IMG/VR virus record: IMGVR_UViG_3300031857_000054
Coordinates: 43,018-107,017 of that record
From: a virus
Direction: 5' to 3' (one strand)
Length of the DNA stretch: 64,000 nt
Shown: piece after piece, positions 7,380 to 35,240 of the stretch
Layout: each line of letters opens with the position of its first letter
Position numbering within the stretch: the first letter of the stretch is position 1
Position numbers and translations under genes: made by a program
Notes under the pieces: model-generated
What the model was told of the DNA's origin: nothing
What the model saw: only the letters and a program-made list of their open reading frames with translations
The model's database searches: none

Positions 7380-7409
7380 CATTAGTTGTAACAGACAACC
7401 AACCATATT

Positions 7410-11409: not shown

Positions 11410-13860
11410 ATGATCATAGAAGCACTCAAAGAGTACACTGATGCACTGAATCACGCATACTTTTATCCAGAGCAATTTGTTTCTGCAGCCAAGAAACAAA
11501 AGCCTCAGTGGATTAAATCTACCCTTGACTACTTTGCAAATATTGCATTTGCCCAGTACCGACAAAACATAAAATTCAGAAAAAACTACCGTCTATTTAA
11601 CGGAGAGTTTAACTTTGATGATTACACCAATGAGCCCCAGATACAAGAAATTATTAGTTACCTTTCAGATACTCCTGATCAAGAGCCAGAAATTCCTCAG
11701 CATCTTAAGCATTATCCAATAGTCAACCCACCTATCAATCAATTAAAGGGTGAGTTAATTAACAGACCATTTAAGTATAAGGTCAAAGCTGTTGACGATG
11801 CGAGTGTAGATGAGAACATTGACTTCCGTACTGACTTAATTAAAGAGTTCTTCATGAATAAAATGATGGCTCGTTTAGAAGGAGTACCTGAAGAACAGTT
11901 ACAGCAGATTCAAGAAGAGATGATGGCTGAGATTCAAAACAAAATCTTGGACTACACTTCTACTGCCGAAGAGTGGGGCAACAAAGTACTTAATGCACTT
12001 AAGTATAGTTTCCGTTTAAAAGAAAAGTCTAGTCAAGGTTTCTTAGATTTCTTGATTACAGGACAAGAGTTTCACCACTTCTACCCAGACAATTCAAGAA
12101 TCGGATTTAACTACAAAGTAGAAAACCCATCTAACGTATGGTACTTAGCTAATCGTAATGCTATGTATACTACTGATTGTTGGGCTTTAGGTACTATTGA
12201 AGTTCTTTCTATGTCTGAAATAGTAGAGAGATATAATCTTTCTGGTGAAGAAGTTAAGCACTTGAATAGTCGTTCTTTACAGAATCTTCGTAACAACGAA
12301 TATTCTCCATTGTCTCCTGCACTTCCAGACCCTAATGACCCATTGTGGCAGTTGACATTTGAGAACGTGGGTGACTTTGCCAATGGAGGTATTGACCACA
12401 ACGTATTCTCGTTCAACTCTCAACACGCCTACACAGTAGTTACTTGTTACTGGCAGTCTAAAAAGAAGATATATAAGCGTCAGTACATAGACGAACAAGG
12501 ATACCTTCAAGAACAATTTGTAAGTGAAGACTACAAGTACGATAAAACTATGGGCGATATTGCTCTAGATGAGTTGTGGATTAACGAATGGTGGAAGGGT
12601 ATTAAGATTGGTGCTGACATCTACATTGATGTAGAGCCTCTAGAGTATAGCCAAACTCCTCCAATTGTAGGTATTGTAAACACTACTCGTAATACGCAAG
12701 GCAAATCCTTGCTTGATCTTCTTAAGCCTTACCAAGTTCTTTACAACATTTGTATGAACCAGTTGTGGGAGTTACTTGAGAAAGAGATTGGTGTGGTATT
12801 CTTGGGTGACTTAAAAGTAGTGCCTAAGAAAGATTCTCAAGATCCAATTGAGACAATGCTTTGGAATGCCAAGAATCGTGGTACTTTGTTTATTGATACA
12901 TCTCCAGAGAATACTGGTGGAGCTGTTCAGTTCAACCAAATGTCTCGTGTAGACTTGACTAGAACTGCAGAAATTCAATCTCGTATCCAATTGGCACAAG
13001 CTCTCCGTACAGAGGCATACGAACTTATTGGTGTAACTCGCCAGCGTCTAGGTTCAGTAACTCCCTCTGAGACGGCTACTGCTACTAAAGAAGGACTTAC
13101 TCAATCATTCTCTCAAACAGAAACATGGTTTGCTTGGCATGATAACGTAATGCAACAAGTATATCAAACAATGTTGGAGATGGCTCAGTATACAGAATTG
13201 CAAAAGCCTACCTCTACTTTGAACTACTTAAACTCAGAATTGGAAACTGTATTCTTACGTATAACTAAGAATGAGTTACTCCGTGAGTTGTTTGTATTTG
13301 TGACATCATACGCTGAGGATAGAGTAACACTTGAACAGTTGCGTTCGTTGGCTCAACCCGCACTTCAGAATGGTGCAGAGTTGATTGAGATTTTTGACCT
13401 GTACACCGCTGCCTCAGAACGTTCACTTCGTCACGTATTAGAAGGCGTACAAGAACGTAAAGCTCAATTGCAACAACAGCAAATGGCACAACAGCAACAA
13501 CAGATGGAAATGCAACAACAACAATTCCAAACTAAACTTGCTGCAGATGCTGAACAAAAACAACAAGATGCACAACGTGAGGATATGAACAAAGAACTCG
13601 ACCGTCAGAACAGACTTGACGTAGAGCGTCTGCGTGGTATTGCTAACGAATCTTCTTTCTCACAAGACAAAGATTTGACTCCTCTATTGATACAACAAGC
13701 TAACTTGGCTAAGGAACAATCTAAGATGCGATTTGAGCAACTTAAGAATGCTGACCAAGTTAGTCTTAAGAGTAGAGAGTTAGATTTAAAGGAAAAAGAC
13801 ATCGATACTAAGCTGCAAATAGCTAAGCAAAACAAGAATAAATACGATAAGAAGAAATAA
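11410..13860 (+). CDS. Portal protein
   Basis: 816 aa directly after TerL. crAss-type HYPIVNPPINQLKGE, WINEWWKG, LKPYQVLYNI motifs. Gln-rich coiled-coil C-terminus. Confidence 0.9.
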   Translation: MIIEALKEYTDALNHAYFYPEQFVSAAKKQKPQWIKSTLDYFANIAFAQYRQNIKFRKNYRLFNGEFNFDDYTNEPQIQEIISYLSDTPDQEPEIPQHLKHYPIVNPPINQLKGELINRPFKYKVKAVDDASVDENIDFRTDLIKEFFMNKMMARLEGVPEEQLQQIQEEMMAEIQNKILDYTSTAEEWGNKVLNALKYSFRLKEKSSQGFLDFLITGQEFHHFYPDNSRIGFNYKVENPSNVWYLANRNAMYTTDCWALGTIEVLSMSEIVERYNLSGEEVKHLNSRSLQNLRNNEYSPLSPALPDPNDPLWQLTFENVGDFANGGIDHNVFSFNSQHAYTVVTCYWQSKKKIYKRQYIDEQGYLQEQFVSEDYKYDKTMGDIALDELWINEWWKGIKIGADIYIDVEPLEYSQTPPIVGIVNTTRNTQGKSLLDLLKPYQVLYNICMNQLWELLEKEIGVVFLGDLKVVPKKDSQDPIETMLWNAKNRGTLFIDTSPENTGGAVQFNQMSRVDLTRTAEIQSRIQLAQALRTEAYELIGVTRQRLGSVTPSETATATKEGLTQSFSQTETWFAWHDNVMQQVYQTMLEMAQYTELQKPTSTLNYLNSELETVFLRITKNELLRELFVFVTSYAEDRVTLEQLRSLAQPALQNGAELIEIFDLYTAASERSLRHVLEGVQERKAQLQQQQMAQQQQQMEMQQQQFQTKLAADAEQKQQDAQREDMNKELDRQNRLDVERLRGIANESSFSQDKDLTPLLIQQANLAKEQSKMRFEQLKNADQVSLKSRELDLKEKDIDTKLQIAKQNKNKYDKKK

Positions 13861-13905: not shown

Positions 13906-13935
13906 TTGTGTTAATTTTTTAATAGGTTAACTTTG
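13906..13935 (+). promoter_or_regulatory. Bacteroidota promoter for scaffold/MCP, overlapped by a 10-bp inverted repeat
   Basis: TTG (13906-08), 19 nt, TAACTTTG (13928-35). TTAACCTATT 13898-907 / AATAGGTTAA 13921-30. Confidence 0.75.
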
Positions 13936-13964
13936 AAAACAGACAAACCAACCAACTAATTGTC

Positions 13965-15176
13965 ATGAATAACAACCCAAACGACGACCAATTAGGTTTA
14001 GACAACCTAGAGTTCTTTGAAAATTTTGCTACTGATGATCCCCTAGAGGATCCCCAGTTTGATCCCAACGCTAATCTTGCCCCTGATATTTTGGGTGGCG
14101 AGAAGATGGACTTAGAAGACGATGACCTTCCTATGGGAGGACAAGGTAAAAAACCAACGGCTCCTGCAACTCCTGCCACTCCTCCAGCCTCTACTCCTAA
14201 TGAAGAAGAAGAGGAAGAAGAAGACGATGACAACAAGTCTGCAGGCAACCAAGAGCTAGAAGATGATGACTTAGAAGATGATTCTGACGACATTAACTAC
14301 TACGAAGCTTTTGGTAAAGGATTGCTGAAGTCAGGACATTTTGATTTAGGTGAGGAAATTGATCCTGACCAAGTAGAATGGACTGAAGAAAGTTTCCTTG
14401 AAATGATGTCTGCTACCGTTGAGAACAAAGCGTGGAAACAACTAGAGGAAATTGCTACTGAGGCTTATGGTCCAGAAGGACTTGAATTGGTGAAAGACCT
14501 TTTCATTAATAAAGTCCCTGTACAACAATACCTTTCTAAGTTCAACGAACAAGTTGCACTTGAAAATGTTGACTTGACTAATCCTCAGAACCAAGAAGCT
14601 ATCTTCCGTGAGTATCTTTCTCGCACTGGTTTAGACCAAGATGAGATTGATGAACAACTTGAATATGCTGTCAAGACTAATAAACTTGAGAACTTCTCAG
14701 AAAAGTACTACGTAAAATTACTTGAACGTAGTAGACAAGAGAGAGAAGTGTTAGCAGAACAAAGTGCTCAGAAACAAAGAGAAGCACAAGAAAGAGAAAA
14801 TGCAAGACAAGAATCTTACATTAAAACTTTGGAAGGTGCAATCAAGACAGGAGATATTAACGGCTTCCCTATCAATCAGAATGAAGCAGCTAACTTATTT
14901 GACTATGTAACTAACAAAAGTTATCAGTTACCTAACGGTCAAAAGATTAGCGAGTTTGAGTTTACCTTGGCAAAGATGCGTCAAGAAGATCCTCAAAAGT
15001 TTCTAGCAGTAGCAAGGTTAGTTCAATCTAACTTAGACCTAGCTCCAGTTAAGAAGAAAGGTGTAAGTGAGGAGACTAACTCAATTTTCCAAGAACTGCA
15101 AAAAAAGTCTAAAAAAGGACCTAAAGGAGAACCTAGAAAAGAGACCCAACTCTTTAGTAATTTCTTCGGTAGATAA
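13965..15176 (+). CDS. Acidic scaffold-like capsid assembly protein
   Basis: Very acidic N-terminus and coiled coil, located between portal and MCP as in crAss-like phages. Confidence 0.7.
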   Translation: MNNNPNDDQLGLDNLEFFENFATDDPLEDPQFDPNANLAPDILGGEKMDLEDDDLPMGGQGKKPTAPATPATPPASTPNEEEEEEEDDDNKSAGNQELEDDDLEDDSDDINYYEAFGKGLLKSGHFDLGEEIDPDQVEWTEESFLEMMSATVENKAWKQLEEIATEAYGPEGLELVKDLFINKVPVQQYLSKFNEQVALENVDLTNPQNQEAIFREYLSRTGLDQDEIDEQLEYAVKTNKLENFSEKYYVKLLERSRQEREVLAEQSAQKQREAQERENARQESYIKTLEGAIKTGDINGFPINQNEAANLFDYVTNKSYQLPNGQKISEFEFTLAKMRQEDPQKFLAVARLVQSNLDLAPVKKKGVSEETNSIFQELQKKSKKGPKGEPRKETQLFSNFFGR

Positions 15177-16735: not shown

Positions 16736-16753
16736 TCTAGGCGGTCTTTAGAG

Positions 16754-16777
16754 GGGGAGGGTTCTCGGACTCTCCCC
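16754..16777 (+). terminator. Stem-loop after MCP (mRNA stabiliser or weak terminator)
   Basis: GGGGAGGGTT-ctcg-GACTCTCCCC 10-bp stem with two G:U pairs. No U tract. Confidence 0.5.
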
Positions 16778-16818
16778 TGATAAAGATATTAGATTAACCA
16801 AAACAATCAACCAAAATA

Positions 16819-17760
16819 ATGAAAGGACAAGAAATCGCACGCGGAACAAAGGTTATTAAACCTTACCGCAAAGAACCTGCAAACTCTAGGAGTTTAGAAG
16901 GATCACTGTACAGGGAGGGATTTAATTTCATCCCAGGTACATCAAAAAAGTTTTACCCTCGTGTTGATTCACGTGGAGTAATACGAACAGGACTAGATGA
17001 AAACGCAATGAAGTTGCGAGCAATCGAAGACCCTGAAGTAAGAGAGCAAGAGATGAACCGTATTAAGACTTTAAAAACTTACTACGAATCTATTTTAGAT
17101 GAATCTCTTGACCCTACTAGTACGTTCTATGACGAAATAAAAGAGAATGGGTACACCCTAGAAGATGGAGACAATATCTTTAACTTGGAGAATCCCCGTG
17201 ATGCAATTAACTTCTTTTGGTTACTTGAAACGGATATGGTTGCTCACAGTATAGACGATATTGAAACTGGAAAAGCTGACGGATCTATTGTACGTTTTTA
17301 TGTACACGATGGTGAAGTAGAATCTAAATCCGCTTTTGAACGTAAAAAGCGAATTAACAGTGCGATTGCAGAGTTAGATAGAATGACTGCAGTTAAACGT
17401 AAGAAGATTCAAAAGCTTTTAGGTTTAGGATTGGCTGGAGATGCAAGTGAGGAAGAAGTATACAATGCTCTAGACGAGTATTTGCGTATTCCTGCTACTG
17501 CTCTTGACCAAGACCCAATCGCTGCGTTTACGAAAATCACTAAGTACAGTGAAGAGACCTTGGCTATCAAGTCTCTAATCCGTGAGTTGATTGACTACAA
17601 CGTTATAAGAGTTAAAGGTTCTGTAGTTTATGAAGGAGAGCACGTATGGGCTAGATCAGTAGAAGAGTTAGAATTAACTTTGGCTGACCCTAAGAACTCC
17701 GACATTTACGATGCCTTTAAAGACAAAGTAAAAAACAAAATGAAACTATCCGTTATCTAA
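16819..17760 (+). CDS. Conserved crAss-like protein downstream of MCP
   Basis: Synteny. 313-aa charged helical protein. Confidence 0.7.
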   Translation: MKGQEIARGTKVIKPYRKEPANSRSLEGSLYREGFNFIPGTSKKFYPRVDSRGVIRTGLDENAMKLRAIEDPEVREQEMNRIKTLKTYYESILDESLDPTSTFYDEIKENGYTLEDGDNIFNLENPRDAINFFWLLETDMVAHSIDDIETGKADGSIVRFYVHDGEVESKSAFERKKRINSAIAELDRMTAVKRKKIQKLLGLGLAGDASEEEVYNALDEYLRIPATALDQDPIAAFTKITKYSEETLAIKSLIRELIDYNVIRVKGSVVYEGEHVWARSVEELELTLADPKNSDIYDAFKDKVKNKMKLSVI

Positions 17761-20474: not shown

Positions 20475-20984
20475 ATGGCTAACTTACAAAGAAATATAGA
20501 AGTTTTAAAAGCTAAGGATTGTGCTTACTTATCAATCCTAGATACCTCGTACTATCCTGAAACTTTAGACGAGGCAAACATTCAAATCACTGCACCTGGT
20601 TATGATATTCCATTTGAATTTGCTTTTACTTTAAATGAAGTAAACGTATACAATTCATACACTTTTGGATTCACTACCAATGCAACGGCAGATTTTGTAG
20701 AATTGCCAGATGGTTTATATACTTTGAACTTAACTACTTGCCCTGACACAGGAGTATGTACTAGATATCACCTACGCACTTGTAGGATTGATTGTAGACT
20801 TGCTGTACAATGGGCTAAGTATGCACAAGATTGTGAGGATGAAAAAATCCTTTACTATCTAGATAAGATTGAGTTTCTGCTACGGGGAGGAGAAGCTAAC
20901 GCAGATTTATGTAACCCCGAAAAAGCAATTGAATTATACAGAAAAGCAGATGACTTACTTAGACGATTTGAACTTGACTGTTAA
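20475..20984 (+). CDS. Virion protein, tail hub-like
   Basis: Ig-like N-terminal half (LPDGLYTL) and helical Cys-containing C-terminus. Synteny with crAss tail-hub genes. Confidence 0.55.
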   Translation: MANLQRNIEVLKAKDCAYLSILDTSYYPETLDEANIQITAPGYDIPFEFAFTLNEVNVYNSYTFGFTTNATADFVELPDGLYTLNLTTCPDTGVCTRYHLRTCRIDCRLAVQWAKYAQDCEDEKILYYLDKIEFLLRGGEANADLCNPEKAIELYRKADDLLRRFELDC

Positions 20985-21725: not shown

Positions 21726-23651
21726 ATGAGTACTTGTCTTGACTGCTACGGAACCAACACAATAGAACCATGTGCTGAAATTGGATGCCTTTCCACAAAT
21801 TTTGGAAAGTGCGTTACTTACTCAGGCACAGGTTTGTATTGTTCTCTAGGTCCAATTAATACCTTTACCTATTCGGGTACTGCTGTTGCTATAGTTTCTG
21901 AAGTTACCGTGGTAGTTGGTGCTACTGGCGGTTCTGGTTCAGGTGCTACTTTTAGTGTAACTAGAGGACCATCTTCTACATCATACACAATCTCTATTGT
22001 AAATAAAGGTAGCGGATATGCAATAGGAGAAACTCTTACCATTGCTGGTACAGCTGTAGGTGGTACGGCTCCTGCGAATAACATTTCAATTGTAGTAACT
22101 ACACTATCAGCTATTATTGATAGCACCTATACAATGGATGCGGCTATCAAGAATTTGCATGATCGTATCTGTAACTTAACTCCAACTGGTCTTTTATACA
22201 GTGGATTTAACTATGCTTGTCTTCGTCAAGGAGGTAACTTAGAGTCAGTAGGTGCGTCTATTACTACTGCACAAGGATTTGCTGAATCTTCTTCTGCTGC
22301 GTTGTGTGCGTTAAACACACGTTTAAAAGCAGTAGAGACTCCAACCTTTACTGTGCCTGGTTGTGTAACAGGATTAACTTCTGGTGTTTCTACTCTAGGA
22401 GCAATCTTAACTGAGTATGGTAACAAACTTTGTGCTATTGCAGGAGGAACAGGAGGTATTACCATCACTGGAGTAACAGTTCCAGGTAGTTGTACAATGA
22501 CTACTATCCCCTCATCAACTGCCCCTATTGGTACTTGGTTTGATTGGGTAGTAGACAATATGTGCTCAATCACCACGGGATTGAATGCGGCAATTACTTC
22601 AACTAACTCAACCGTAAGTACTATAACTACTTTCTTGGGTAGTACCACGAAATTTAATAACAGTGCAAACTGTTTGACTGCCTTGGGAGGTACAGCAACT
22701 GATTCTGCTCATGCTACTATTGGTTATCTTACCACTAAGGTATGTGCAGTAGACACAACCGTTAACGCTATTCCTTCTTATATTAAGACTGATAGTGTTG
22801 CTCTTAACTGGGTAGGTTGTTTTGGTTCTGCACCATATAGTTACGCTAACACTGCAACTACAATTCAAACTCAATTACAAAGAATTGTAGCCGTATTGAA
22901 TGCTGAGAAAACTGCATACTCTGCAGACTTTGTACTAACTACAGCAGGTTGTGGTTCCAAGATTGTGTCTTTGGCTCCTACTGCTGCTTTCTCTTGTAGT
23001 TCACTTTCTACTTGTTCCATCAATTCTCTTGGAGATGTAATAGTAACCACTCCTGTGAATCCTGATGTACTTTACTATAACGGAACTAACTGGGTTAATA
23101 AAAATATTAACGCATTGGTTACTATGTCAAGTACTGACGGCACAGTGGCAATTACTCCAACTACAACTGCAGGTAACGTAAACTACGATTTGAGTGTTAC
23201 TGGTTTGACAGCTACTAGAGCAAACCTTACTGCAATAGCAGTAACTGGAGCAAACAACACATTCCCTGCAGCTTACCCAACTAGTCCTGGTACTGGATAC
23301 GCTCAAGTAACTAAACAAGGTAGTATTGTGACTTTAGCAGGTAGTATTGAGTTGGTGGTGACAAGTGGACTTACATTAGCTTTTGGTACACCTGTACCTA
23401 TCGCAACTGTGCCTGCTGGATTTAGACCTATAACAGGGCCTATCAGTTTCTACTCAAGAGCATTTAAAAAGGGAACTGCTCCATACAATGATCCTGATGG
23501 TTCTTTTGATGCAAGAATTACCATTGACATAGCAGGTACTGTAAATATAATTCCTTATCCTACATACCCTGCAGCAAGTTTAGTGCTTGCTACTGCTGGT
23601 AGTAAGGTAGAAATATTGTTAGGAGCACACTCCTATAGTATCCTACCATAA
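21726..23651 (+). CDS. Tail fibre / receptor-binding protein
   Basis: GSGY-type beta module, repeated Cys-punctuated helical segments, LGDV..VLYYNGTNWVN fibre motif, C-terminal head with IATVPAGFRP. Confidence 0.75.
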   Translation: MSTCLDCYGTNTIEPCAEIGCLSTNFGKCVTYSGTGLYCSLGPINTFTYSGTAVAIVSEVTVVVGATGGSGSGATFSVTRGPSSTSYTISIVNKGSGYAIGETLTIAGTAVGGTAPANNISIVVTTLSAIIDSTYTMDAAIKNLHDRICNLTPTGLLYSGFNYACLRQGGNLESVGASITTAQGFAESSSAALCALNTRLKAVETPTFTVPGCVTGLTSGVSTLGAILTEYGNKLCAIAGGTGGITITGVTVPGSCTMTTIPSSTAPIGTWFDWVVDNMCSITTGLNAAITSTNSTVSTITTFLGSTTKFNNSANCLTALGGTATDSAHATIGYLTTKVCAVDTTVNAIPSYIKTDSVALNWVGCFGSAPYSYANTATTIQTQLQRIVAVLNAEKTAYSADFVLTTAGCGSKIVSLAPTAAFSCSSLSTCSINSLGDVIVTTPVNPDVLYYNGTNWVNKNINALVTMSSTDGTVAITPTTTAGNVNYDLSVTGLTATRANLTAIAVTGANNTFPAAYPTSPGTGYAQVTKQGSIVTLAGSIELVVTSGLTLAFGTPVPIATVPAGFRPITGPISFYSRAFKKGTAPYNDPDGSFDARITIDIAGTVNIIPYPTYPAASLVLATAGSKVEILLGAHSYSILP

Positions 23652-23722
23652 GATCTTGACAGTTTACTAGGGTTGGTTGTCTGTCAAAACCCCGAATAGA
23701 GCCTAGGCAACTAGGCTCTTTT
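23652..23722 (+). ncRNA. Candidate 3'-UTR-derived regulatory RNA
   Basis: Hairpin TTGACAG/CTGTCAA presenting GGTTGGTTGT in its loop, followed by a terminator. 14-nt complement to the leader at 7391-7404. Confidence 0.35.
23698..23722 (+). terminator. Rho-independent terminator
   Basis: AGAGCCTAG-gcaa-CTAGGCTCT followed by TTT. GNRA loop. Confidence 0.85.
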
Positions 23723-23739
23723 GGTTTAATTAAAAGTAA

Positions 23740-23770
23740 TTGACATTAGTAACAGTTTAAATTATATTTG
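23740..23770 (+). promoter_or_regulatory. Bacteroidota promoter
   Basis: TTG (23740-42), 20 nt, TATATTTG (23763-70), upstream of ATG 23796. Confidence 0.75.
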
Positions 23771-23795
23771 TACAAAAACTAACTTCAAGTAAATT

Positions 23796-24425
23796 ATGAC
23801 AATATCAGATGTAATATCCAGAGTTAGGATTTCTAATAAGTTCATTAGCGATGATGATTTCATGTCTGATAGATTTATTTACAATACCTTAAAAACTAAG
23901 GCAAGTGCAATTCTTAGAAGAGAAATTAATCTTCGTAAGTTATTAAATTCAGACAATGTATACAGTGCGTATGAATGCATTGAGTTAATACTAGCCCCAG
24001 GTGCTGAGTGTGATTTGAATTGTGACATTCGTCGTAGTAAGAAAAAGCTGCCTAAAATAGAAGAAGGGCTATATTCTTATTTTATTCAAGGGGTATTCAA
24101 TACATCTAACTCAGAAGAACTCTTCCCTACTACTATCAGGGATTTTATTAACCACACTAGACTTAGAGTTAAGACTAACCGTTCTTATTACACAATAAGA
24201 AACGGCTACTTGTATGTGTTGAATCCAGATGTAGAGGCAGTCAATATGTACGCTTACTTTACAGAACCTTTAAATCCTAAACCTTGTTCAAGTATGTATG
24301 AGCAAGATTTTAAATTCCCTGAGTACTTGTTGGATAGTTTATTAGAAATGACTAACCAAAGTTTAGTTAACTTCCATAAACTTCCTCAAGAACCATTTAG
24401 TGATAATAAGGATGACGCAATCTAA
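23796..24425 (+). CDS. Tail ring protein
   Basis: MTISDVISRVR start, SDRFI, YYTIRNGYLY, FPEYLLDSL. Synteny with crAss ring genes. Confidence 0.7.
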   Translation: MTISDVISRVRISNKFISDDDFMSDRFIYNTLKTKASAILRREINLRKLLNSDNVYSAYECIELILAPGAECDLNCDIRRSKKKLPKIEEGLYSYFIQGVFNTSNSEELFPTTIRDFINHTRLRVKTNRSYYTIRNGYLYVLNPDVEAVNMYAYFTEPLNPKPCSSMYEQDFKFPEYLLDSLLEMTNQSLVNFHKLPQEPFSDNKDDAI

Positions 24426-25672: not shown

Positions 25673-28600
25673 TGGAAATTAAAGGTAATCAAAATACCAA
25701 AGGTCTTAACCTAGACTCTTTAAACTGGCAAGTAGAAGGTAGCCAGTTGACATGGGCATTGAACGCAAATATCATGTCCCATGATGGTAATACATTTACC
25801 TATACAAACGAGATGTCCAACCAAGTTTGTGTGGATTTTAGCTCGTTTAAGAACGGATACAAAATTAACGGCCTACTAAATATAATAGAACAGAATAAAG
25901 TAGTTGTGTTCTTAGTAGGTCCAGATGGAAAAGGAGAGATAGGAGTAATTACAAATAACGGTTTAGATTGTGTTGAGTTAGATTCAATAGAAACTGACTG
26001 TGGTTGTGTAGGCGGTAAAGTAATTAAAGACACAGTTGTCAAAGCAACAACTACAGTTACAGCAAACTCAACTACTTGTTTCTATGGTATTATTAACGAG
26101 ACTATAGATGATGGTTCTGGTAACTACGTAAATAACTATGCATTTCACTATGTAGACTGTAATGGAAATAGAGTAAGTGGCAATACAAGTAGCCTCGTAT
26201 TTAAAACAACACAAGAGTGGTATGCCGACTTAGGTTATACCAGTTTTGATGCCAACATGAGTCCTACTTATTTGTCTAAAGTAGTATCTATGATATGCTA
26301 TGATTCTGTAGCAACTATAGACTACATTAATGAACTAGGCACTTCAAGTAATGTGACCCCAATGCAGCATCCTCAACCGTTGTTGTATGATACATTTCCC
26401 TGTGAAGCTACAGTTGTAGAAAAGACTTGTTGCGATTACGAACCTGTGTTAATTGATGAGTGTTGTCAAGATTGTTGTCAAGATTGTTATACTGTTACCT
26501 TGCAAACAGTAAATCCATCAATACCTTCTGGAGGATCTACAGGTCAAGTAGTAATTGAATATACAGACTGTAATGGTATAGTTAGAGGCATAGAAGTACC
26601 TGAAAATACATTTGAAGGGTACGGTTCATTTAACATGATTAAGGACTCTTGGAGAGTAATCCAAAGAGGAAAACCTGGTGTTGATGTAGTAGTTGCAGTA
26701 GAACAAGTTTACTCTACAGGAAACTGCAATCCTTGTTTGAATCCTTCTCCTGAGAATTGCTGTTTGAACTTCGATATTGACTATCCTATTTATGCGACTT
26801 ATAGAGTAGATCAGTGTGAAACTAGAGTATACTTTGTACAGAAGAATAATCCTCCTAGATACTTATCATTGGAGTTTCCTCTAAATAGAGATTCCTGTGG
26901 TGAGTCACAAGATTGTGGAGGCAAGAAACTTGTAACAAAGAAGACTTGTAAAGAGTTAAATATTTTTCCTGATACCTGCCATCCTAAAGTAACTCCAACC
27001 AATGTTTCTAATGGAGGTCAACTTAAAGCAGGTAACTATCAGTTTGCTATTGCATATACAGATGAAGAAGGGGCTGAGTTAACTGATTACTTTGACTTTA
27101 GTCAGCCTATTCCAATTTTTGAAAAGAAACTTACCAACCTTACTGACTACGTTACTAACTATTCTATTACAGTTCAGATAGACCATAAGGTTAATATCTT
27201 TGACTATTTTAATTTAGTAGTAGCGGAGACAATCCAAGGGGCCACTACAAACTATCATTTGATTGGCAACTATAGAGTACAAAAACAGTACTTGATGGAT
27301 TCTATTGTTTACACAGGAGAATACAAATCTACCTTTAGTTCTATTTCTCCTTTGATTAGAACTCCGCACTATAAGAATGCAGGTATCATTGAGAATCAGA
27401 ATGATATCTTGATGATTGCAGATTTGGAAAGAGAGTATCAGTATAACTTCCAGCCTTTTGCAAACAAACTTAAATTGCAGTGGGAAACAGTAAAGATGCC
27501 CCACGGAGACAAGTGGGACTACTCTAATCCTGAGATAGTACACATGTTCCGTACTTATCAAAGGGACGAGGTATATGCTTTCGGTATTAAGTTTAAACTA
27601 AAGACAGGTAAGTATACTGAAGTATTCCATATTCCTGGCAGAGCAAAGAACGCTGCACTTGGAGATACCACTTCGGTTCCTACTTCTAGTACCGATTACT
27701 TTATAGAAGAAGGAGACTGTTCTGATGTAGCAGCACCTAAAGAAAAGTGGGAAGTATACAACACAGCAGGTAACGGTCAGGTATTTGTATCAAACAATCC
27801 TACTGAACTAGAGAAACAATTCTCTTGTGCAATTTTTAACGACAAACGTGGAGAGTTTGCTTATTGGGAATCAAAAGAACTCTATCCATGTAATGAAGAG
27901 ATTTGGGATACTGATGCTTATGGTAATCCTTTGGCAGGACAACCGATTCGTTTTCACAAGTTTCCTGATTCTTTGATATCTCACATTCATGATGGTTTAT
28001 TTAGTACGGGTAATGTTTTTCCTGCTTTTGATAACCAATCTAATATCTATCCTATAGGAGTAAGAGTAGACGCAGATGCATTCAACAATCTACTCAACAC
28101 TTTAACTATTGCTAATCCTGGAGATCCTGCTAACCCTTTCTATGCCAAAGACCTTATCTGCGGATTTGAGTTAGTGTTTGCTTCTCGTGTAGGACATAAA
28201 TCTGTAGTAGCAAAAGGACTTCTTTATGACGTAGGACACTATACCACAGATGACGGTAGTAAAGAATACTACTATCCTAACTATCCTTTCAACGATATTA
28301 ACTGGAGAGGAAGTAGTTCTGTAACAGATCCTTACTTGAGAACATCTGCAGATTGGTACAAACGTCAAGATAGAAGACGTGCTTTTAGCGGAGACCTAGG
28401 AGAGTTTGCACACAATGGTTTTGTAGACAACAACATTATTAACTACAAGCATAATAGATTTACATTCCATTCTCCTGACACACACTTCTCATATCCTAAA
28501 ATCGGTTCAGAACTTAAGTTAGAGACACTTGAGATTGGTTCTGTATTGGGACACTTTGTAGAAGTAGAAGAACATAGTAAGATTAAGTTGTACACGGATA

Positions 28601-31269
28601 AAGTACAGACTATATCTAATCTACTGTCTATGATACTCAACATCAAAGACTATCGTATCATGACTGAGAACTACTTCCAAGACAAGGAAATGTTTGCTCA
28701 GTTGATAGAAAGATTTACTCCTAAAGTAAACCTTGCTTGGCAGTATAATGGTGTCGCTAAGTATAACGGATACTTAACTATTCCAAACTCAGGACATAAA
28801 CGTAGGTCTGTTAAATTTGGTAATTACGCTCCTAGTGAAATCCTAAACTTTGGGCAAGGAGAAAAACCATTCCACAACAGATACAGAGAGTCAAGTGTAT
28901 ATCTTTCACTGAATAGTTCTTTCGATCATCACCACCCTACTCTTTTAGACAACTCTAGATACCTAGCATCTGAACACAACAAGTCTAATCCAACTGATAT
29001 AGATGATAGTAGAACTACTAGAGCATACTACGGTTCAGTAAAAGTTTATCGTCCAAACCAATATGGACCACTAACTAATTTGCGTTACCTATCTACAGGG
29101 TACTCTGTTGATATTGAAATAAATCCGAATAATGGTTTAGGTCAAGTAGTACAAACTTACTACCCTGCATTTGGTGGTGACACGTTTATTAACGCATTTG
29201 CCCTCAAACGTAAGCATGCTTTCTTCCGTCAGAATCTTGCAGGTAAGCCAGACGACATTCCATTTAACTATTACCTATTCCCCAACTTAGGATATCCAAG
29301 TCATTTCTATGGATTCAATGCTGCAGCTCAAGACGTAGAAGCAGTTTTACAAAGTAGGATTGATCTTATGGTTGCTGCTATAGCAATTGTTGCAGCTGCA
29401 GCTCTTCTTAATTCTGCATTTGGTGATGGTATTGCATTTGGAGAAACAACTACTGCTTTAGCTACAACTGCAGGAAAAATTCTTGTGCTTGATATAGTCA
29501 ATGATTTGTTAGCGTCTACTAAACCTTACATATTCCTAGATAAGGATGAGACGTTTGACAATACTTGGTTAGGAGTAGGTGTAGGGGGAACATATTTCTA
29601 CTACAAGGGAATGGTGTATCTGTTTTCTTATGGACTTCCTATCTTTTTTGTTGAGTCTGATGTAAACGTAGATTTCCGTCATGGCAGAAATGACCGTGAG
29701 GAAAACTTCTACGGAGCAAAAGAACTAGGAGAGATTCCTGACCAGTGGTTACAAGAAGTAAACGTACCAATTAAGTACGATAACTTTTACCACTACAATC
29801 CTACTTATTCTGCTCAGAACGTAATCAATCCAAACTTTGTATATAATGAAGATTGGCCAGAGTTGTATTGCGAAACTGATTTGTATAACCGAGTAGTATA
29901 CTCAGATCCAGCAGGTAAATACGGCAAAGGAGATCCTTGGTTAAACTACAGAAGAGGTAACTACTATGACTTTCCTAAAACTCATGGTAAGTTAATTGCT
30001 TTGAATGGTGTGGAGAATAGCAAAGTGTATGCTCGTTTTGAGAATAACACTAAAGTATACAACGCTATCATTACACTCGACAGCACTAATCCTATTGCAA
30101 TGGAGATTGGTGATGCCAGTATGTTTAAAAGCAAGCCTTTGGAAATGTCTACTGCAGACATTGGATACTTGGGAAGCCAACACAAAGCGTTTATTAAAAC
30201 AACTCATGGTGGGTTCTGGGTAGACGCACGTAGAGGTCACGTATACCAAGTAACTAGTGGAGGTGTAGATGAAATTTCTTTAAGAGGTTCTATGCAATGG
30301 TTTAAAGAAAATCTACCATTTAAGATTCTTAAGGACTTCCCTGACTTCCCTGTAGACAATAACTTCAAAGGTATTGGTATTGCATTGGGATGGGATGAAC
30401 GTTTCCACCGTGTGTTCTTAACTAAACTGGACTTCAGAGTTAAAGAACAATACAGAGGTTTTGTTACTTACGAGAACAAGAAGTTCTATTACAATGATAC
30501 TGAGATTGCATTTGCAGATTTGACTTACTTTGAGAATCATTCATTTACAATCTCTTATAGCGTTCTTCTTAAAGCATGGATTTCATTCCACTCTTTCTTG
30601 CCAAACGCTTACATATCTTTTATAGACCATTTCCAAACAACAACACAGACTGGAACATGGAACCACAACTTGTCTCCACTCACTTACCAAACTTATTACA
30701 ATCGTTTCTATCCTTACATTATTGAATATACTGTAAATAATCTACCTAACACACACGTAGTTAATTCAATTACTTACAATCAAGATATTCATAAGTACTA
30801 CAATAGAAACGACTATTACTCTTTGGGTTCTTACAACGATAAGAATACTCCAAACTTTACTAAGGCTATTGTTTATAACAAAGAGCAAACATCAGGATTG
30901 GTTAATCTAATACCTCAACTTCCTAATGACGCTCGCCAACGTTTGTTGTATCCTAGAGTAACTAGATTTGGTATGGAAGTATTAGTAGGCAAGAGAGACA
31001 ATAAGAATACCTTTAACGGATTCTGGGACGCTACTAATAACAAAGAAAACTTCCAAACACTATTCAGTACTAAGTGGGACGATCTAAGCGCTGACTATCC
31101 AATCGATAAAGTAGTAAATCCAAAAGCAATTATCACAACTACTAGACTAGGAGGAAAGCAAAAGATTCGTGCACCATTCTGTAAGGTTCGTCTTATTCAA
31201 GATAAATTTAACAGATACAAATTCATCAACAACCTACAACTAACACAAACCACTAACTCAGCAATATGA
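25672..31269 (+). CDS. Muzzle / tail stabilisation protein (1865 aa)
   Basis: KGLNLD..WALNAN start, GQLKAGNYQFAIAY, YQRDEVYAFGI, FHSPD, FGGDTFI, WISFHSFLP motifs. Synteny. Confidence 0.85.
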   Translation: MEIKGNQNTKGLNLDSLNWQVEGSQLTWALNANIMSHDGNTFTYTNEMSNQVCVDFSSFKNGYKINGLLNIIEQNKVVVFLVGPDGKGEIGVITNNGLDCVELDSIETDCGCVGGKVIKDTVVKATTTVTANSTTCFYGIINETIDDGSGNYVNNYAFHYVDCNGNRVSGNTSSLVFKTTQEWYADLGYTSFDANMSPTYLSKVVSMICYDSVATIDYINELGTSSNVTPMQHPQPLLYDTFPCEATVVEKTCCDYEPVLIDECCQDCCQDCYTVTLQTVNPSIPSGGSTGQVVIEYTDCNGIVRGIEVPENTFEGYGSFNMIKDSWRVIQRGKPGVDVVVAVEQVYSTGNCNPCLNPSPENCCLNFDIDYPIYATYRVDQCETRVYFVQKNNPPRYLSLEFPLNRDSCGESQDCGGKKLVTKKTCKELNIFPDTCHPKVTPTNVSNGGQLKAGNYQFAIAYTDEEGAELTDYFDFSQPIPIFEKKLTNLTDYVTNYSITVQIDHKVNIFDYFNLVVAETIQGATTNYHLIGNYRVQKQYLMDSIVYTGEYKSTFSSISPLIRTPHYKNAGIIENQNDILMIADLEREYQYNFQPFANKLKLQWETVKMPHGDKWDYSNPEIVHMFRTYQRDEVYAFGIKFKLKTGKYTEVFHIPGRAKNAALGDTTSVPTSSTDYFIEEGDCSDVAAPKEKWEVYNTAGNGQVFVSNNPTELEKQFSCAIFNDKRGEFAYWESKELYPCNEEIWDTDAYGNPLAGQPIRFHKFPDSLISHIHDGLFSTGNVFPAFDNQSNIYPIGVRVDADAFNNLLNTLTIANPGDPANPFYAKDLICGFELVFASRVGHKSVVAKGLLYDVGHYTTDDGSKEYYYPNYPFNDINWRGSSSVTDPYLRTSADWYKRQDRRRAFSGDLGEFAHNGFVDNNIINYKHNRFTFHSPDTHFSYPKIGSELKLETLEIGSVLGHFVEVEEHSKIKLYTDKVQTISNLLSMILNIKDYRIMTENYFQDKEMFAQLIERFTPKVNLAWQYNGVAKYNGYLTIPNSGHKRRSVKFGNYAPSEILNFGQGEKPFHNRYRESSVYLSLNSSFDHHHPTLLDNSRYLASEHNKSNPTDIDDSRTTRAYYGSVKVYRPNQYGPLTNLRYLSTGYSVDIEINPNNGLGQVVQTYYPAFGGDTFINAFALKRKHAFFRQNLAGKPDDIPFNYYLFPNLGYPSHFYGFNAAAQDVEAVLQSRIDLMVAAIAIVAAAALLNSAFGDGIAFGETTTALATTAGKILVLDIVNDLLASTKPYIFLDKDETFDNTWLGVGVGGTYFYYKGMVYLFSYGLPIFFVESDVNVDFRHGRNDREENFYGAKELGEIPDQWLQEVNVPIKYDNFYHYNPTYSAQNVINPNFVYNEDWPELYCETDLYNRVVYSDPAGKYGKGDPWLNYRRGNYYDFPKTHGKLIALNGVENSKVYARFENNTKVYNAIITLDSTNPIAMEIGDASMFKSKPLEMSTADIGYLGSQHKAFIKTTHGGFWVDARRGHVYQVTSGGVDEISLRGSMQWFKENLPFKILKDFPDFPVDNNFKGIGIALGWDERFHRVFLTKLDFRVKEQYRGFVTYENKKFYYNDTEIAFADLTYFENHSFTISYSVLLKAWISFHSFLPNAYISFIDHFQTTTQTGTWNHNLSPLTYQTYYNRFYPYIIEYTVNNLPNTHVVNSITYNQDIHKYYNRNDYYSLGSYNDKNTPNFTKAIVYNKEQTSGLVNLIPQLPNDARQRLLYPRVTRFGMEVLVGKRDNKNTFNGFWDATNNKENFQTLFSTKWDDLSADYPIDKVVNPKAIITTTRLGGKQKIRAPFCKVRLIQDKFNRYKFINNLQLTQTTNSAI

Positions 31270-31643
31270 CACCAGAAGTAATTAGCTCTATGAGACCTGA
31301 AGTGTACTTAGGGCAATTTTTCCAATCGAGAGATATCATACACCTTGCACATCTCCAAACAACTTCATACTCAGAGCATGAAGCTTTAAACAAATACTAT
31401 GATGGCCTACTTGGTCTTCTAGATAGCATGATTGAGTCTTACTTTGGCTGTATCGGAAAAAGAGTCAATATTAAGATTCCTGCATCTGATTACATAAATG
31501 CAGAAACACATCTAAAACAGTTTAAAGAATATGTCAAGAAACATCGCGGAGTTCTAGGTATGGACAGGACAGATGTACAGAATATTTTAGATGAAATAAT
31601 CGCTTTGATTAATAAGACATTATATTTGCTTAGCTTAACTTAA
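31266..31643 (+). CDS. Small ferritin/Dps-like four-helix protein (DUF5856-like)
   Basis: HLAHLQTTSYSEHEALNKYYD..LDSMIE and QNILDEI..LYLL patterns. Confidence 0.7.
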   Translation: MTPEVISSMRPEVYLGQFFQSRDIIHLAHLQTTSYSEHEALNKYYDGLLGLLDSMIESYFGCIGKRVNIKIPASDYINAETHLKQFKEYVKKHRGVLGMDRTDVQNILDEIIALINKTLYLLSLT

Positions 31644-31651
31644 TTATTAAT

Positions 31652-31891
31652 ATGGGTAACTCTAGTTTAAAAGATATGTACTATGCCAAGAAAGGCATGG
31701 AGATGAAAAAAGGTGGTAAGTGGATTCAAAAAGCTATTCAAAAGCCAGGATCATTTACAGCACAAGCGAAGCGTGCAGGTATGTCTACTAGTGCATTCAG
31801 AGAAAAAGTATTAGCTAACAAAGGAAAGTTTTCATCAACTACAGTAAAAAGAGCTAACCTAGCGAAAACTTTATCTAAAATGAAAAAGTAA
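31652..31891 (+). CDS. Small basic internal virion protein
   Basis: Lys-rich, KWIQKAI.KPG..KRANLAKTL. Carries the MKKGG motif. Confidence 0.7.
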   Translation: MGNSSLKDMYYAKKGMEMKKGGKWIQKAIQKPGSFTAQAKRAGMSTSAFREKVLANKGKFSSTTVKRANLAKTLSKMKK

Positions 31892-33345
31892 TGAAGTCTT
31901 CTCTATTTGAACACTACAAAAAGAAGTATGCTGCTGGTGGTAAACTACCAGTACGTAAGACTGGTATGTGGTATCAAGACGGGGACGTTGTAGTTCCTTC
32001 AAACGAGATTACTATGAAGGGTCCAGATGGAGAAAAAGATTACTTTGATTCCCCAATTCTAGGTATTGGACTTTTGTCTGGAGACACACAAGTAATGGAG
32101 CCAGGTAAGGACTACTTGTTTCCTAAAGACAATGCAGTACTAGAAAAGAAAATGCAGATGGGTGCAAAGGTTGCTTCTAAGGATATGACTCCTGAGCAAC
32201 AAGCAAGATTCAATGCATACGTGAGAAGTTCAAATCCTAGCAACATAGCAACTCCTGAGTGGTTAGGTCTTTCTTCTGGCGCTACTAATTATGCCCGTAG
32301 ACTTAATAACATGAGTCAAGAAGATATGATGGGTATGCCTGGAGATATATCAAGCAGAGTAAGTGATGCATTCAAAAGTGGAATAGACTATTCTGTTAAC
32401 TATGGATTACCAAAAAACACAGGTCAAATTACTACAGAAGGTAACTATAATCCTTTTGGACAAAATACTTTAGATAGTTTATATGGCGGTTTGTCTTACA
32501 GTCAATCTTTTCCAAAAGGCTCTGTAAGGTTAACTCCTGAGAAACAGGAGGTAAGACTTAGAGGTAAGGCAGGCAATCTTAAATATAAGAGAGAAATGTC
32601 TGACGAAGAAGTTATCTCTAACTTAGCTTTTGACGTTAACGTTCTTCCTGAAGCACTTAACTTATATGGCGAGGGTAGTATCTCAGATCTTGGAGTAACT
32701 AAAGACCCAACAGGTAAGACTCTTAACTATAAGGATATGCAGACGAATCCTCAATACAATGTGAGAGCAGGTATCAGAGGAGATGTAGGGCCTTTAAACT
32801 ATAACTTAAGTGGAAGTTATAATCCAGAAACAGGCTATACTTATAACGGAGATGCTGAGTTAGCTTTACTTAAAGACAGATTAACTCTTAGTGGAAGTGT
32901 TGCAGGAAGCCAAGCAAAAGGTATGGAATCTATGACTGCAGAAGCAAGAGCAAAACTTGCTAAGAATCTAAATGTAAGAGCAGGATATAGACAGTCTGGA
33001 AATGAACCTGGAAACTTTAATGTAGGTCTAACTTATAATAAGTTTTTTGAAGAAGGAGGCGAAGTTGAAGATGAGGAAGACGAACGTGAGAACGACAAGG
33101 AGATGGTAGAAGGTATTGCAGATATCTTAAGAAGAGTTAAAGATAAAAAGAATAGAAAACAAATTGCCAAGAAGATGGTAGAAGACTTTGACGAAGAAGA
33201 AGTTGAATACAATCTTGACAATTTTATGAAGGCTGCTAAACTCATGCAGATGGGTGGCATGTCTATACCAGGAGTAAATGGTGTTATTGTAGCTAACAGT
33301 AGCCCAACAAGTTTAAAGAGTGCCTACAAGAATAAGAAAAAATGA
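31891..33345 (+). CDS. Modular internal cargo protein with beta-strand-rich central domain
   Basis: Modules separated by YAAGG, MQMGA, FEEGG, MQMGG. No Cys. Confidence 0.7.
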   Translation: MKSSLFEHYKKKYAAGGKLPVRKTGMWYQDGDVVVPSNEITMKGPDGEKDYFDSPILGIGLLSGDTQVMEPGKDYLFPKDNAVLEKKMQMGAKVASKDMTPEQQARFNAYVRSSNPSNIATPEWLGLSSGATNYARRLNNMSQEDMMGMPGDISSRVSDAFKSGIDYSVNYGLPKNTGQITTEGNYNPFGQNTLDSLYGGLSYSQSFPKGSVRLTPEKQEVRLRGKAGNLKYKREMSDEEVISNLAFDVNVLPEALNLYGEGSISDLGVTKDPTGKTLNYKDMQTNPQYNVRAGIRGDVGPLNYNLSGSYNPETGYTYNGDAELALLKDRLTLSGSVAGSQAKGMESMTAEARAKLAKNLNVRAGYRQSGNEPGNFNVGLTYNKFFEEGGEVEDEEDERENDKEMVEGIADILRRVKDKKNRKQIAKKMVEDFDEEEVEYNLDNFMKAAKLMQMGGMSIPGVNGVIVANSSPTSLKSAYKNKKK

Positions 33346-34988
33346 AAAAGCAAATGATAAAACGGGCTGACGGTTCCTACTCTCAACGAGGATTGTGGGA
33401 TAACATTAGAGCGAATAGAGGTAGTGGTAAGAAACCTACCGCAGAAATGCTTAAGCAAGAACGTAAGATTAAATCTAAAATGGAAGAAGGTGGTGTTAAC
33501 AACCCAGGCTTCAAAGCATTGCCAGGATATGTTCAAGCTAAAATCAAAGCCAACATGCAAGAAGGTGGAATGACAGGTTCTGCTGTTGTAGATATCATGG
33601 GTAATCAAATGCAAAAACCTATGATGCAGATGGGAGCAGTAATGCCTCAAACATCAGCAGGACAATCAGTACTTCAAGAAGCTATGATGAACAAGATGCA
33701 GTCTGGTGGTAAGATGCCAGCCGACATTGCACGTGCTCGTTTTATGGCTGCTGCTAAAGGTAACGTAAGTCAAGCTAAAGAAACTGCATCTAGATATGGA
33801 TACAAAATGCAGAACGGTGCTATGAACTTAATGGGAGTTCCTAACATGAATGCAGGTACAGCAGGATTTAATTTCTCTAAAGCCTCTGCATATGCTATGG
33901 CACCCAAAGAGGAGGTTCCTACTGATATAGAAAGAATGGAAGCCGTAGACATCAGAAGAAAACGTTCTTTCTTTGATAGAATGAAAGGCAACATAAGAAA
34001 AGCAGGAAGAGCAGTAGGTATAGGTAGTCCAGCTCCTAAGACAGATTCTCAGCAAGTAATGGATGAAGTAATCGGTCAAGTTAGAGCAGACGAACAAGCA
34101 CGTATAAAATCTAACGCACCTACTAGTGCCGAGAAAAGTAGAACTGCATTTAATAAAATTAAGTCAGGTGATGTATCAATGCAAAACATTGGTGACTACA
34201 TGGAAGGTTTTGGTACTTACTTAAATGCAAGTAGCGATAGAAATGTAGTAACCGACTTGTTTGATATTACAGCAAAAGGTGCTGCTGCAGTTGGTGCTGG
34301 TAATGCAGCAAGTAATATTCTACAAACTAAACAAGCTGCACAAGCAGCAATGCAATCTCCTGTTGGAGCAGCCGTAGATTTAGTAAATCCTTTAAGTATT
34401 GGAGCTAACTTGTTATCAGGTACAACAGATGCAATTGGAGAATTGTCTGCAGGTAACTATGAAGAAGCTACTGGCGTTGCTGCTAAAACAGCAGCACTTG
34501 CCGCTTTAAAAGGTAAAGCAGGAAATGTATCTAAAAATGCTCTAGGTAGAACAGCTAATGCTATTGGTAAAACCAGAGTAGGAAGTGCTGCAAGTAACGC
34601 TATTGGTTCTGCTACTAAACATGGAGTAGGACATCAACTTGAGCATGCAGGACAACACATGTTACTTTCTCCTCTTCTAGCACATAAGAATGGAGGTACT
34701 ATTAAAGATATGTACTACATGAAGAAGGGAGGTCAGTTCCCAGACCGTTACAAGAAGATGGGATTTTCTGGAGTGGATCAACCAAAAAGAACTACTAGTG
34801 GTGGTAAAAGTCATGCAGTAGTTACTAAAGTTGGAGGAAACTATAAGTTAATTCGCTTTGGTCAAGCAGGTGTATCAGGCTCTCCTGAAGGTTCTGCAAG
34901 AAACAAAGCATTCAAAGCACGTCACGCAAAGAATATAGCTAAAGGAAAATCTTCAGCTGCATACTGGGCTAATAAAGTAAAGTGGTAA
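33342..34988 (+). CDS. Modular internal cargo protein (basic micro-domains plus Gly/Ala-rich hydrophobic region)
   Basis: Seven [MH]xxG[GA] motifs. C-terminal basic module KLIRFGQ..FKARH..SAAYWA. No Cys. Confidence 0.7.
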   Translation: MKKQMIKRADGSYSQRGLWDNIRANRGSGKKPTAEMLKQERKIKSKMEEGGVNNPGFKALPGYVQAKIKANMQEGGMTGSAVVDIMGNQMQKPMMQMGAVMPQTSAGQSVLQEAMMNKMQSGGKMPADIARARFMAAAKGNVSQAKETASRYGYKMQNGAMNLMGVPNMNAGTAGFNFSKASAYAMAPKEEVPTDIERMEAVDIRRKRSFFDRMKGNIRKAGRAVGIGSPAPKTDSQQVMDEVIGQVRADEQARIKSNAPTSAEKSRTAFNKIKSGDVSMQNIGDYMEGFGTYLNASSDRNVVTDLFDITAKGAAAVGAGNAASNILQTKQAAQAAMQSPVGAAVDLVNPLSIGANLLSGTTDAIGELSAGNYEEATGVAAKTAALAALKGKAGNVSKNALGRTANAIGKTRVGSAASNAIGSATKHGVGHQLEHAGQHMLLSPLLAHKNGGTIKDMYYMKKGGQFPDRYKKMGFSGVDQPKRTTSGGKSHAVVTKVGGNYKLIRFGQAGVSGSPEGSARNKAFKARHAKNIAKGKSSAAYWANKVKW

Positions 34989-34989
34989 T

Positions 34990-35142
34990 ATGGCAACTAA
35001 AAAATCTACCAAAGTAACTTCTAATTCTTCTTTGTATAAAGAGAAAGGAAAAGTTAGTCGTCCTGGAGTTCACGCTAAAACTAAATCTTCTAAGTTAAAG
35101 CAAAGCAAGAACTACCATAAGGCGAGCAGAGGTCAAGGCTAA
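34990..35142 (+). CDS. Small highly basic protein (50 aa), absent from the ORF track
   Basis: MATKKSTKVTSNSSLYKEKGKVSRPGVHAKTKSSKLKQSKNYHKASRGQG*. Starts 1 nt after the upstream stop and ends just before the next promoter. Confidence 0.75.
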   Translation: MATKKSTKVTSNSSLYKEKGKVSRPGVHAKTKSSKLKQSKNYHKASRGQG

Positions 35143-35149
35143 GTAAGGC

Positions 35150-35179
35150 TTGATTTTTCTTGACAATAGAGTATATTTG
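35150..35179 (+). promoter_or_regulatory. Bacteroidota promoter
   Basis: TTG (35150-52), 19 nt, TATATTTG (35172-79). Confidence 0.8.
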
Positions 35180-35240
35180 TATTTAAACTTTTTAAGTTCA
35201 AGTATACTTAACTTCTAAAGTTAATTAATATTTTAAGTTA

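Follow-up and report, generated by a model that had tools for sequence, protein, structure and literature searches.

A conserved hairpin predicted in the 3'-UTR of crAss-like phages and its complementarity to start regions of phage genes

An uncultured crAss-like phage of Bacteroidota carries, immediately after the stop codon of a late gene, a conserved RNA hairpin whose loop is complementary to a short signal at the start codons of a few conserved phage genes. Loop and signal change together in a sister clade. On this evidence, which comes from sequence alone, the element is more likely than not an antisense RNA regulator of translation.

Genomic context

The window analysed here is a stretch of 64,000 nucleotides, positions 43018-107017 of a 107-kb IMG/VR virus record (IMGVR_UViG_3300031857_000054). 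Its terminase, portal and major capsid protein (MCP) match crAss-type PHROG families, and three proteins of about 2,300-2,500 aa follow the gene downstream of the element. A near-identity search of the phage collection gave no match, and protein searches found only distant cultured relatives at 21-27% identity, the closest being crAss-like phages of Flavobacterium psychrophilum and Cellulophaga baltica at about 27%. Promoters of the + strand genes fit the Bacteroidota sigma-A pattern TTG-N19-TAnnTTTG, and no leader has a Shine-Dalgarno (SD) sequence. The features discussed below are as follows, all on the + strand.

7350-7379: inferred promoter P1 (TTGAC-N-TATATTTG) of the unit that holds the putative wHTH gene and g8786.
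7391-7412: leader of the gene for the 126-aa putative wHTH protein, ACAGACAACCAACC + AUAUU + AUG, a 14-nt perfect complement.
8786-8807: first codons of g8786, which encodes a small protein (AUGACAAAACAACCAACCAACC), the motif lying inside the coding sequence with no promoter nearby.
13906-13935: inferred promoter P2 (TTG-N19-TAACTTTG) of the unit that runs from the scaffold gene to the hairpins.
13939-13967: leader of the gene in the scaffold position, ACAGACAAACCAACC (1-nt bulge), at the 5' end of the transcript inferred from P2.
16790-16821: leader of the post-MCP gene g16819, UUAACCAAAACAAUCAACCAAAAUA-AUG, the weakest site in this genome.
23649-23651: TAA stop codon of the 641-aa late gene g21726, 4 nt upstream of the first stem.
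23656-23687: first hairpin (HP1), a 7-bp stem (UUGACAG 23656-62 / CUGUCAA 23681-87) enclosing an 18-nt loop.
23671-23678: seed core GGUUGGUU in the HP1 loop; in this clade the complementarity extends to 23684 (GGUUGGUUGUCUGU).
23692-23724: second hairpin (HP2), of terminator type, with a lower helix, a 9-bp upper stem, a GCAA (GNRA) tetraloop and a U-rich tail.
23740-23770: Bacteroidota-type promoter P3 (TTG-N20-TATATTTG) of the next unit, conserved in relatives, preceding tail ring protein 2 (g23796, matching PF25702 CrAss_Ring_2).

The element was first noticed in a sequence-only reading, whose observation is confirmed in every coordinate and match. GGTTGGTTGTCTGT at 23671-23684 is the exact reverse complement of ACAGACAACCAACC at 7391-7404, which ends 5 nt before the ATG at 7410, and the related sites ACAGACAAACCAACC (13939-13953), ACAATCAACC (16803-16812) and ACAACCAACC (8794-8803) are where they were said to be. 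The region 23645-23730 folds into two hairpins at -31.7 kcal/mol (z = -3.98). However, the exact 14-nt match, which was the main argument of that reading, is not evidence in itself: the window holds 25 exact 14-mer inverted pairs, whereas first-order-Markov randomised sequences give 20.5 on average (range 8-35), and longer chance pairs also exist. What is beyond chance is that both copies are intergenic, for which we estimate about 0.01 expected pairs, taking roughly 2% of the sequence as intergenic; the comparative evidence below adds much more. The interpretation offered, a late-transcript-derived trans-acting RNA that tunes translation of regulator and head-assembly genes, is partly supported. 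The antisense relation to the start regions of the four named genes is real, conserved and covarying, but the conserved core is only 8 nt, no promoter precedes the hairpin, and the hairpin may act as part of the long mRNA, in cis on the scaffold and post-MCP genes, rather than as a discrete trans-acting sRNA. An alternative GGGTT/AACCC pairing, suggested as a means of hiding the seed, exists only in the window's own clade (clade A) and is not conserved.

Conservation of the two-hairpin element

Searches with the downstream protein and with MCP gave 46 IMG/VR loci and 72 metagenome loci (individual genomes and loci are denoted below by G and L numbers, and clades by letters). The same element follows the stop codon of the upstream gene in all 69 of the loci that hold the ring-protein-2 gene with enough flank, which span MCP identities from 100% down to 66%. 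In one of them, L217, an HNH-like gene is inserted after the element. The order is the stop codon, a spacer of 4-8 nt, HP1 with a stem of 6-8 bp and a G/U-rich loop, a short linker, HP2 with about 13 pairs and a U-rich tail, and the next promoter. In HP2, RNAalifold finds 13 pairs, 5 of them with compensatory double changes, and almost no broken pairs. Its loop is usually a GNRA tetraloop (GCAA, GAAA, GUAA, GAGA or GUGA) but is of UUAAUU type in L144 and L204.

HP1 is conserved mostly in sequence, so that formal stem covariation within the main clade is thin. Pair counting was set aside for this hairpin, as MAFFT mis-registers the 3' strand between clades and an anchored parse took the wrong GTC in clade A; the stem variants are therefore described by inspection. 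The stem is nevertheless maintained in several ways. At one position A-U alternates with G.U (12 sequences each), a change that keeps pairing only on the + strand RNA. In L028 there is one A-U to G-C change, in L202 the stem is a different one, CAGAG/CUCUG, and in the sister clade it is GUUCA/UGAAC, with AUUCA/UGAAU in L216. The loop core GGUUGGUU is invariant in the 26 unique main-clade sequences while its flanks vary. HP2 fits an intrinsic terminator, but the element is not a plain one, since HP1 with its invariant loop is an additional conserved module that the other terminators of the late region lack. Stop-codon readthrough or recoding stimulated by HP1 was considered and set aside, since by inspection in-frame readthrough in this genome would add only 16 residues before a TAG.

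The loop word and its complement at start codons

In the full genome, AACCAACC, the complement of the loop core, occurs 8 times on the + strand and GGTTGGTT once, in the hairpin. All 8-mers were tested blind in six whole genomes for enrichment in the windows from -30 to +18 around start codons. AACCAACC ranks 3rd, with 26 of its 62 copies in 2.0% of the sequence (binomial p = 1e-27). It is the best word that is neither ATG-containing nor poly-A, on a par with the promoter box TATATTTG. Across eleven genomes, 42 of 77 sense-strand copies lie between -30 and +10 of an ATG, all in the same orientation, and each genome has exactly one conserved intergenic sense-strand GGTTGGTT, which is the hairpin. 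The same orthologues carry the word in all clades: the putative wHTH gene, g8786, the gene in the scaffold position and the gene after MCP, where other clades have an exact AACCAACC. MCP, portal and terminase do not carry it. The absence from MCP, presumably the most highly expressed gene, counts against the model, as it leaves the biological logic of the target set unexplained. In g8786 the (AACC)n repeat lies just after the ATG and is read in different frames in different clades (KQPTN, TNQP, NQPTN), so the constraint is on the nucleotides.

The word and the hairpin could instead be two unrelated features, AACCAACC being an unstructured A/C-rich translational enhancer or a site for a ribosomal or RNA-binding protein, and the hairpin a 3'-end stabiliser or a protein-binding structure, with the complementarity a by-product of composition. 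In favor of this view, Bacteroidota start regions are A-rich and unstructured (PMC7366714), other A-rich words are also enriched at start codons, and A/C-rich leaders and a G/U loop are complementary partly through composition alone. However, AACCAACC is the top A/C word with C pairs among all 8-mers and is exactly the complement of the invariant loop core. In the cultured Flavobacterium phage FpV4 the genes abut at the equivalent place, with no hairpin, and the start-region words are plain A/T strings with none of AACC type. The word is thus not a generic enhancer of Flavobacteriia phages but occurs where the hairpin occurs. Nor was a 16S rRNA partner found: nineteen Bacteroidota 16S genes contain none of GGTTGGTT, GGTTGGT, GTTGGTT, TATTGGTTT or TTGGTTTT. 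Together with the covariation described next, these results make the by-product explanation unlikely.

Covariation of loop and start regions

The decisive evidence comes from a sister clade at 66-67% MCP identity (L155, L211, L213, L214, L216, and L217). The element is at the same place, but the HP1 stem differs in sequence and the 12-nt loop is UUUAUUGGUUUU, while the corresponding start regions read AAAACCAAUAUG. In the whole genome of L155, AACCAACC is absent from start regions (0 of 4 copies), whereas AAAACCAA, the complement of that loop, ranks 6th of all 8-mers (10 of 29 copies). The wHTH, scaffold and post-MCP starts read AAAACCAAU(A)UG.

Smaller matched changes occur within the main clade. 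Loops ending GGUUGGUU-UUCC go with g8786 starts AUG-GAAAACCAACC (12 nt exact in L144 and L200), whereas loops ending -UCC go with AUG-GAAACCAACC (11 nt in G008, G005, and G010 of clades D/E); the extra base shifts the codons. Clade A/B loops ending -GUCUGU go with ACAGAC-AACCAACC in the wHTH and scaffold leaders. The clade E loop start GAUUUAGG matches CCUAAGUC after the word in g8786. However, independent events are few, one deep contrast plus three or four smaller ones, and there are exceptions. In G004 the loop has A where U is expected, L148 and L132 mismatch at g8786, the start regions of clade C read AAACCAAACC and pair poorly, and in L176 the scaffold leader has degenerated.

A double-stranded DNA site for a phage protein, for instance the wHTH protein regulating itself, would also give concerted change of all sites if the binding specificity changed. 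In this view the site, which the sequence-only reading had offered as its alternative, would be read in either orientation at the wHTH and scaffold promoters and upstream of the ring-protein promoter. The best matches are indeed in the wHTH gene's own leader and just downstream of the -7 box of the scaffold promoter, and the hairpin lies about 60-70 nt upstream of P3. Several observations argue against an operator. All 42 start-associated sites have the same orientation relative to transcription, the only conserved opposite-sense copy being the hairpin loop. The sites keep their distance to the ATG, not to the -7 box (that distance is about 6-17 nt by inspection), and in the sister clade the motif abuts AUG. 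The g8786 and post-MCP sites have no promoter nearby. A-to-G changes in a target that keep G.U pairs, as in the scaffold leader of G002 (AAGCCGACC), would be mismatches in DNA. The word is held in the loop of a stem maintained by RNA-specific wobble and by different stem sequences, and the extent and direction of complementarity differ by target and by clade. The wHTH assignment itself rests on sub-threshold Pfam hits. A DNA operator is therefore considered improbable, and these features favor RNA-RNA pairing.

Energetics and specificity of the predicted pairing

The four targets give duplex energies of -14 to -23 kcal/mol, whereas 11 control orthologous start regions give -7 to -13. Own-clade hairpins are better than other-clade hairpins by 3.4, 3.1 and 1.4 kcal/mol for wHTH, g8786 and scaffold, respectively, while control differences lie between -1.0 and +1.6. 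Own-seed perfect runs average 8-10.6 nt; swapped seeds still give runs of about 7 nt through U:A tracts. When the cost of opening HP1 is included, cofolding of the 75-nt element with each leader gives ddG of -8.1 (wHTH), -10.1 (g8786), -18.0 (scaffold), and -7.1 (post-MCP gene) kcal/mol, against -0.8 to -5.2 for six controls.

Unbiased duplex scans of both strands of seven genomes are only modestly enriched for start regions: 9 of the 46 top windows, against about 1.7 expected. The wHTH leader is rank 1 of 14,251 windows in this genome and the g8786 start is rank 1 in G005. The g8786 start is also the best predicted target among translation initiation regions in G005, G008, and G010, second in G004, and fourth among the genome-wide windows of L144. 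However, G009 has no start region in its top 6 windows, and the A/U-rich duplexes of the sister clade score weakly. The modest specificity arises because GC-rich chance duplexes with the stem strand outscore A/U-rich true candidates.

Inferred transcription units and proposed mode of action

Motif scans suggest three transcription units. P1 drives wHTH through g8786 and the packaging genes; P2 drives the scaffold gene, MCP, the post-MCP gene and onward to g21726, ending at HP2; P3 starts the tail genes. No further TAnnTTTG promoter was found between 13935 and 23740. The element lies between the stop codon of a protein-coding gene and the terminator that it shares with that gene. The scaffold and post-MCP sites lie on the unit inferred, from these motif scans only, to end at HP2, whereas the wHTH and g8786 sites lie on another.

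The explanation we favor is that the 75 nt after the stop codon of g21726 (23652-23726) form a two-hairpin RNA at the 3' end of the head-gene transcript, and that the G/U loop of HP1 base-pairs with the A/C signal, which lies 0-21 nt before, or 5-10 nt after, the start codons of the four genes. The host phylum uses no SD pairing and needs an unstructured start region for 30S loading, so a duplex there should block loading and lower translation of these genes late in infection. The element would act either after being cut from the mRNA, as a 3'-UTR-derived sRNA, or as part of the mRNA, in trans on wHTH and g8786, and in cis or trans on the scaffold and post-MCP genes. The comparisons above establish the structure, its conservation, the complementarity, the enrichment of the target word at start codons, and the covariation; that a duplex forms in vivo, that its effect on target expression is repression, and that a separate small RNA is released are inferences.

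The pairing might be real but its effect positive or structural, as in 5'-3' end pairing that protects the scaffold-to-g21726 transcript from nucleases, or in hand-over of ribosomes terminating 4-8 nt upstream of the hairpin to the paired start regions. The scaffold site and HP1 lie at the two inferred ends of one unit, that pair gives the strongest cofold, and the constant proximity of the stop codon to the stem means that terminating ribosomes would open HP1. However, two of the four targets lie on another inferred transcript, the duplexes cover the start codon or the first codons, which normally blocks initiation, and we know of no precedent for trans re-initiation. A positive or structural role is therefore possible but not favored. 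A still more speculative and quite unlikely view is that the phage clade uses its own start-region address word (AACCAACC or AAAACCAAU) with a matching RNA adaptor placed immediately after a stop codon, where terminating ribosomes would open the hairpin and either expose the seed or be handed to the paired start regions. Translation of one late gene would thereby set the output of a regulator, a packaging-module protein and the head-assembly proteins, a phage-private, RNA-based substitute for SD/anti-SD logic.

Relation to known antisense systems

An Rfam scan of 23400-24000 at E<=10 gave only five chance-level hits, all far below gathering score and none to the C4 family. A literature search for the motif string returned only primers and unrelated hits, and one for small RNAs of crAss-like phages gave nothing specific. 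The element is homologous to none of the following systems. The 3'-UTR-derived sRNAs of Enterobacteria (CpxQ, SroC, and DapZ type) likewise lie between a stop codon and the mRNA's own intrinsic terminator, have no promoter of their own, and use a short conserved seed complementary to several mRNAs. Here, however, the host phylum lacks Hfq and ProQ, the seed sits in a hairpin loop rather than a single-stranded 5' stretch, and the putative targets are the phage's own genes, sharing one start-region word. In Bacteroides thetaiotaomicron, which lacks SD pairing and Hfq, the sRNA GibS represses mRNAs by annealing across their start-codon regions (Ryan et al., 2020; PMC7366714), making repression the most likely direction here. 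GibS, however, is a chromosomal intergenic sRNA with its own promoter and a long unstructured 5' seed, whereas the present element is phage-borne, in a 3' UTR, with an 8-14-nt seed presented in a loop.

The c4 antisense RNA of phages P1 and P7 is a phage-encoded structured RNA made from the same operon system as its targets, and blocks expression of downstream phage genes (icd/ant) by pairing (Citron and Schuster, 1990, cited in PMC8198154). Loop and target sequences of c4 differ in a matched way between P1 and P7, as they do here between clades, but the analogy is functional only. c4 lies upstream of its targets in an immunity operon of a temperate phage and controls an antirepressor, whereas the present element lies downstream, in a late structural operon, and addresses several start regions. 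In the icaR mRNA of Staphylococcus aureus, a 3'-UTR motif pairs with the ribosome-binding region and controls translation (PMC3868564), which would fit a cis action on the scaffold transcript. The icaR motif is an anti-SD (UCCCC) pairing with the SD of the same monocistronic mRNA; here the leaders have no SD, GGUUGGUU faces AACCAACC, and at least two targets lie on another inferred transcript. Compared with the 3'-UTR-derived sRNAs, c4 and icaR, the element differs in the host phylum, the loop-presented seed, the shared non-SD address word on several of the phage's own genes, and its position directly after a stop codon.

The crAss-like phages are among the most abundant phages of Bacteroidota, yet almost nothing is known about their post-transcriptional control, and we found no description of a phage-encoded base-pairing RNA for them in the literature searched or in Rfam. 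The 75-nt RNA, 8-nt seed, four targets and natural compensatory variants would make a compact, directly testable system, and the matched variants between clades would be ready-made orthogonal pairs for synthetic control in Bacteroidota. If real, the element defines a small regulon, comprising a regulator, a packaging-module protein, the scaffold and a capsid-associated protein, all addressed through one shared start-region word in a host that lacks SD pairing and Hfq. It could show how translation is tuned in SD-less bacteria and how head-protein stoichiometry is set in these phages.

Promoter-pattern matches and leader classes

Late genes of the window are preceded by six intergenic matches to the Bacteroidota promoter pattern TTG-N17-21-TAnnTTTG, which lie at the following positions of the window:
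7350-7379
13906-13935
23740-23770
35150-35179
54187-54216, ending only 5 nt before the ATG at 54221
61126-61155

The match at 54187-54216 would thus give a nearly leaderless mRNA for a giant virion protein. Genes of the - strand, presumably early, have a quite different leader class. In the full virus record (G000), outside the window at about genome positions 27000-36000, their leaders contain a GC-rich hairpin followed by a pyrimidine run of the TTTTTTCTTTTCC type, 15-25 nt before the ATG. This suggests a second promoter or leader type, perhaps for the phage's own RNA polymerase. Also outside the window, near the left end of the same record, an A/C-rich stretch (ACCAACCACACAACC...AACCAACC) is found at 1520-1560, within a 1.9-kb non-coding region without ORFs (439-2349).

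In clade C and in the sister clade, as seen in the start regions of genomes G003, G007 and G011, the most enriched words are AAACTAAA and TAAACTAA (for example, 18 of 43 copies in G003). This is a second, as yet unexplained, leader word, which could pair with UUUUGGUU or UUGGUUUU through one G.U pair.

Other inverted matches and neighboring sequences

In the window, two 16-nt exact inverted matches are longer than the 14-mer shared by the hairpin and the putative wHTH leader: 13531-13546 with 23569-23584, and 20628-20643 with 61359-61374. Both are inside coding sequence, and they serve as examples of chance matches in this window. In the related genome G005 (the record of locus L042), a sense-strand GGTTGGTT near 86029 lies next to a T-arm-like string (GGTTCGATTCC). 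By inspection, it is probably a phage tRNA gene and unrelated to the 3'-UTR element. In one sister-clade record (L217, 18282-18294 and downstream), an extra gene with an HNH-like motif (..GWHLDHIIP..) is inserted between the 3'-UTR element and the ring-protein-2 gene, but the hairpin itself is left intact.

Additional hairpins near predicted target genes

Two further hairpins of the window, one of them potential and within a predicted target leader, lie near these genes:
7384-7398, a small potential 5' hairpin in the wHTH leader
16752-16778, a GC-rich hairpin between MCP and the next gene

In clades A/B, the wHTH leader can form the first of these, GUUGU-AACAG-ACAAC (GUUGU-UGAAAG-ACAAC in the related genome G002). 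It overlaps the 5' half of the predicted target site, so target accessibility may itself be regulated. The hairpin that follows MCP (GGGGGAGGGUUCUCGGACUCUCCCC) has no U-tract. Relatives keep it with changed sequences, for example GGAGGGGG..CCCCCTCC in G003, and it may be an attenuator or a processing or stability element that sets the ratio of MCP to downstream proteins.
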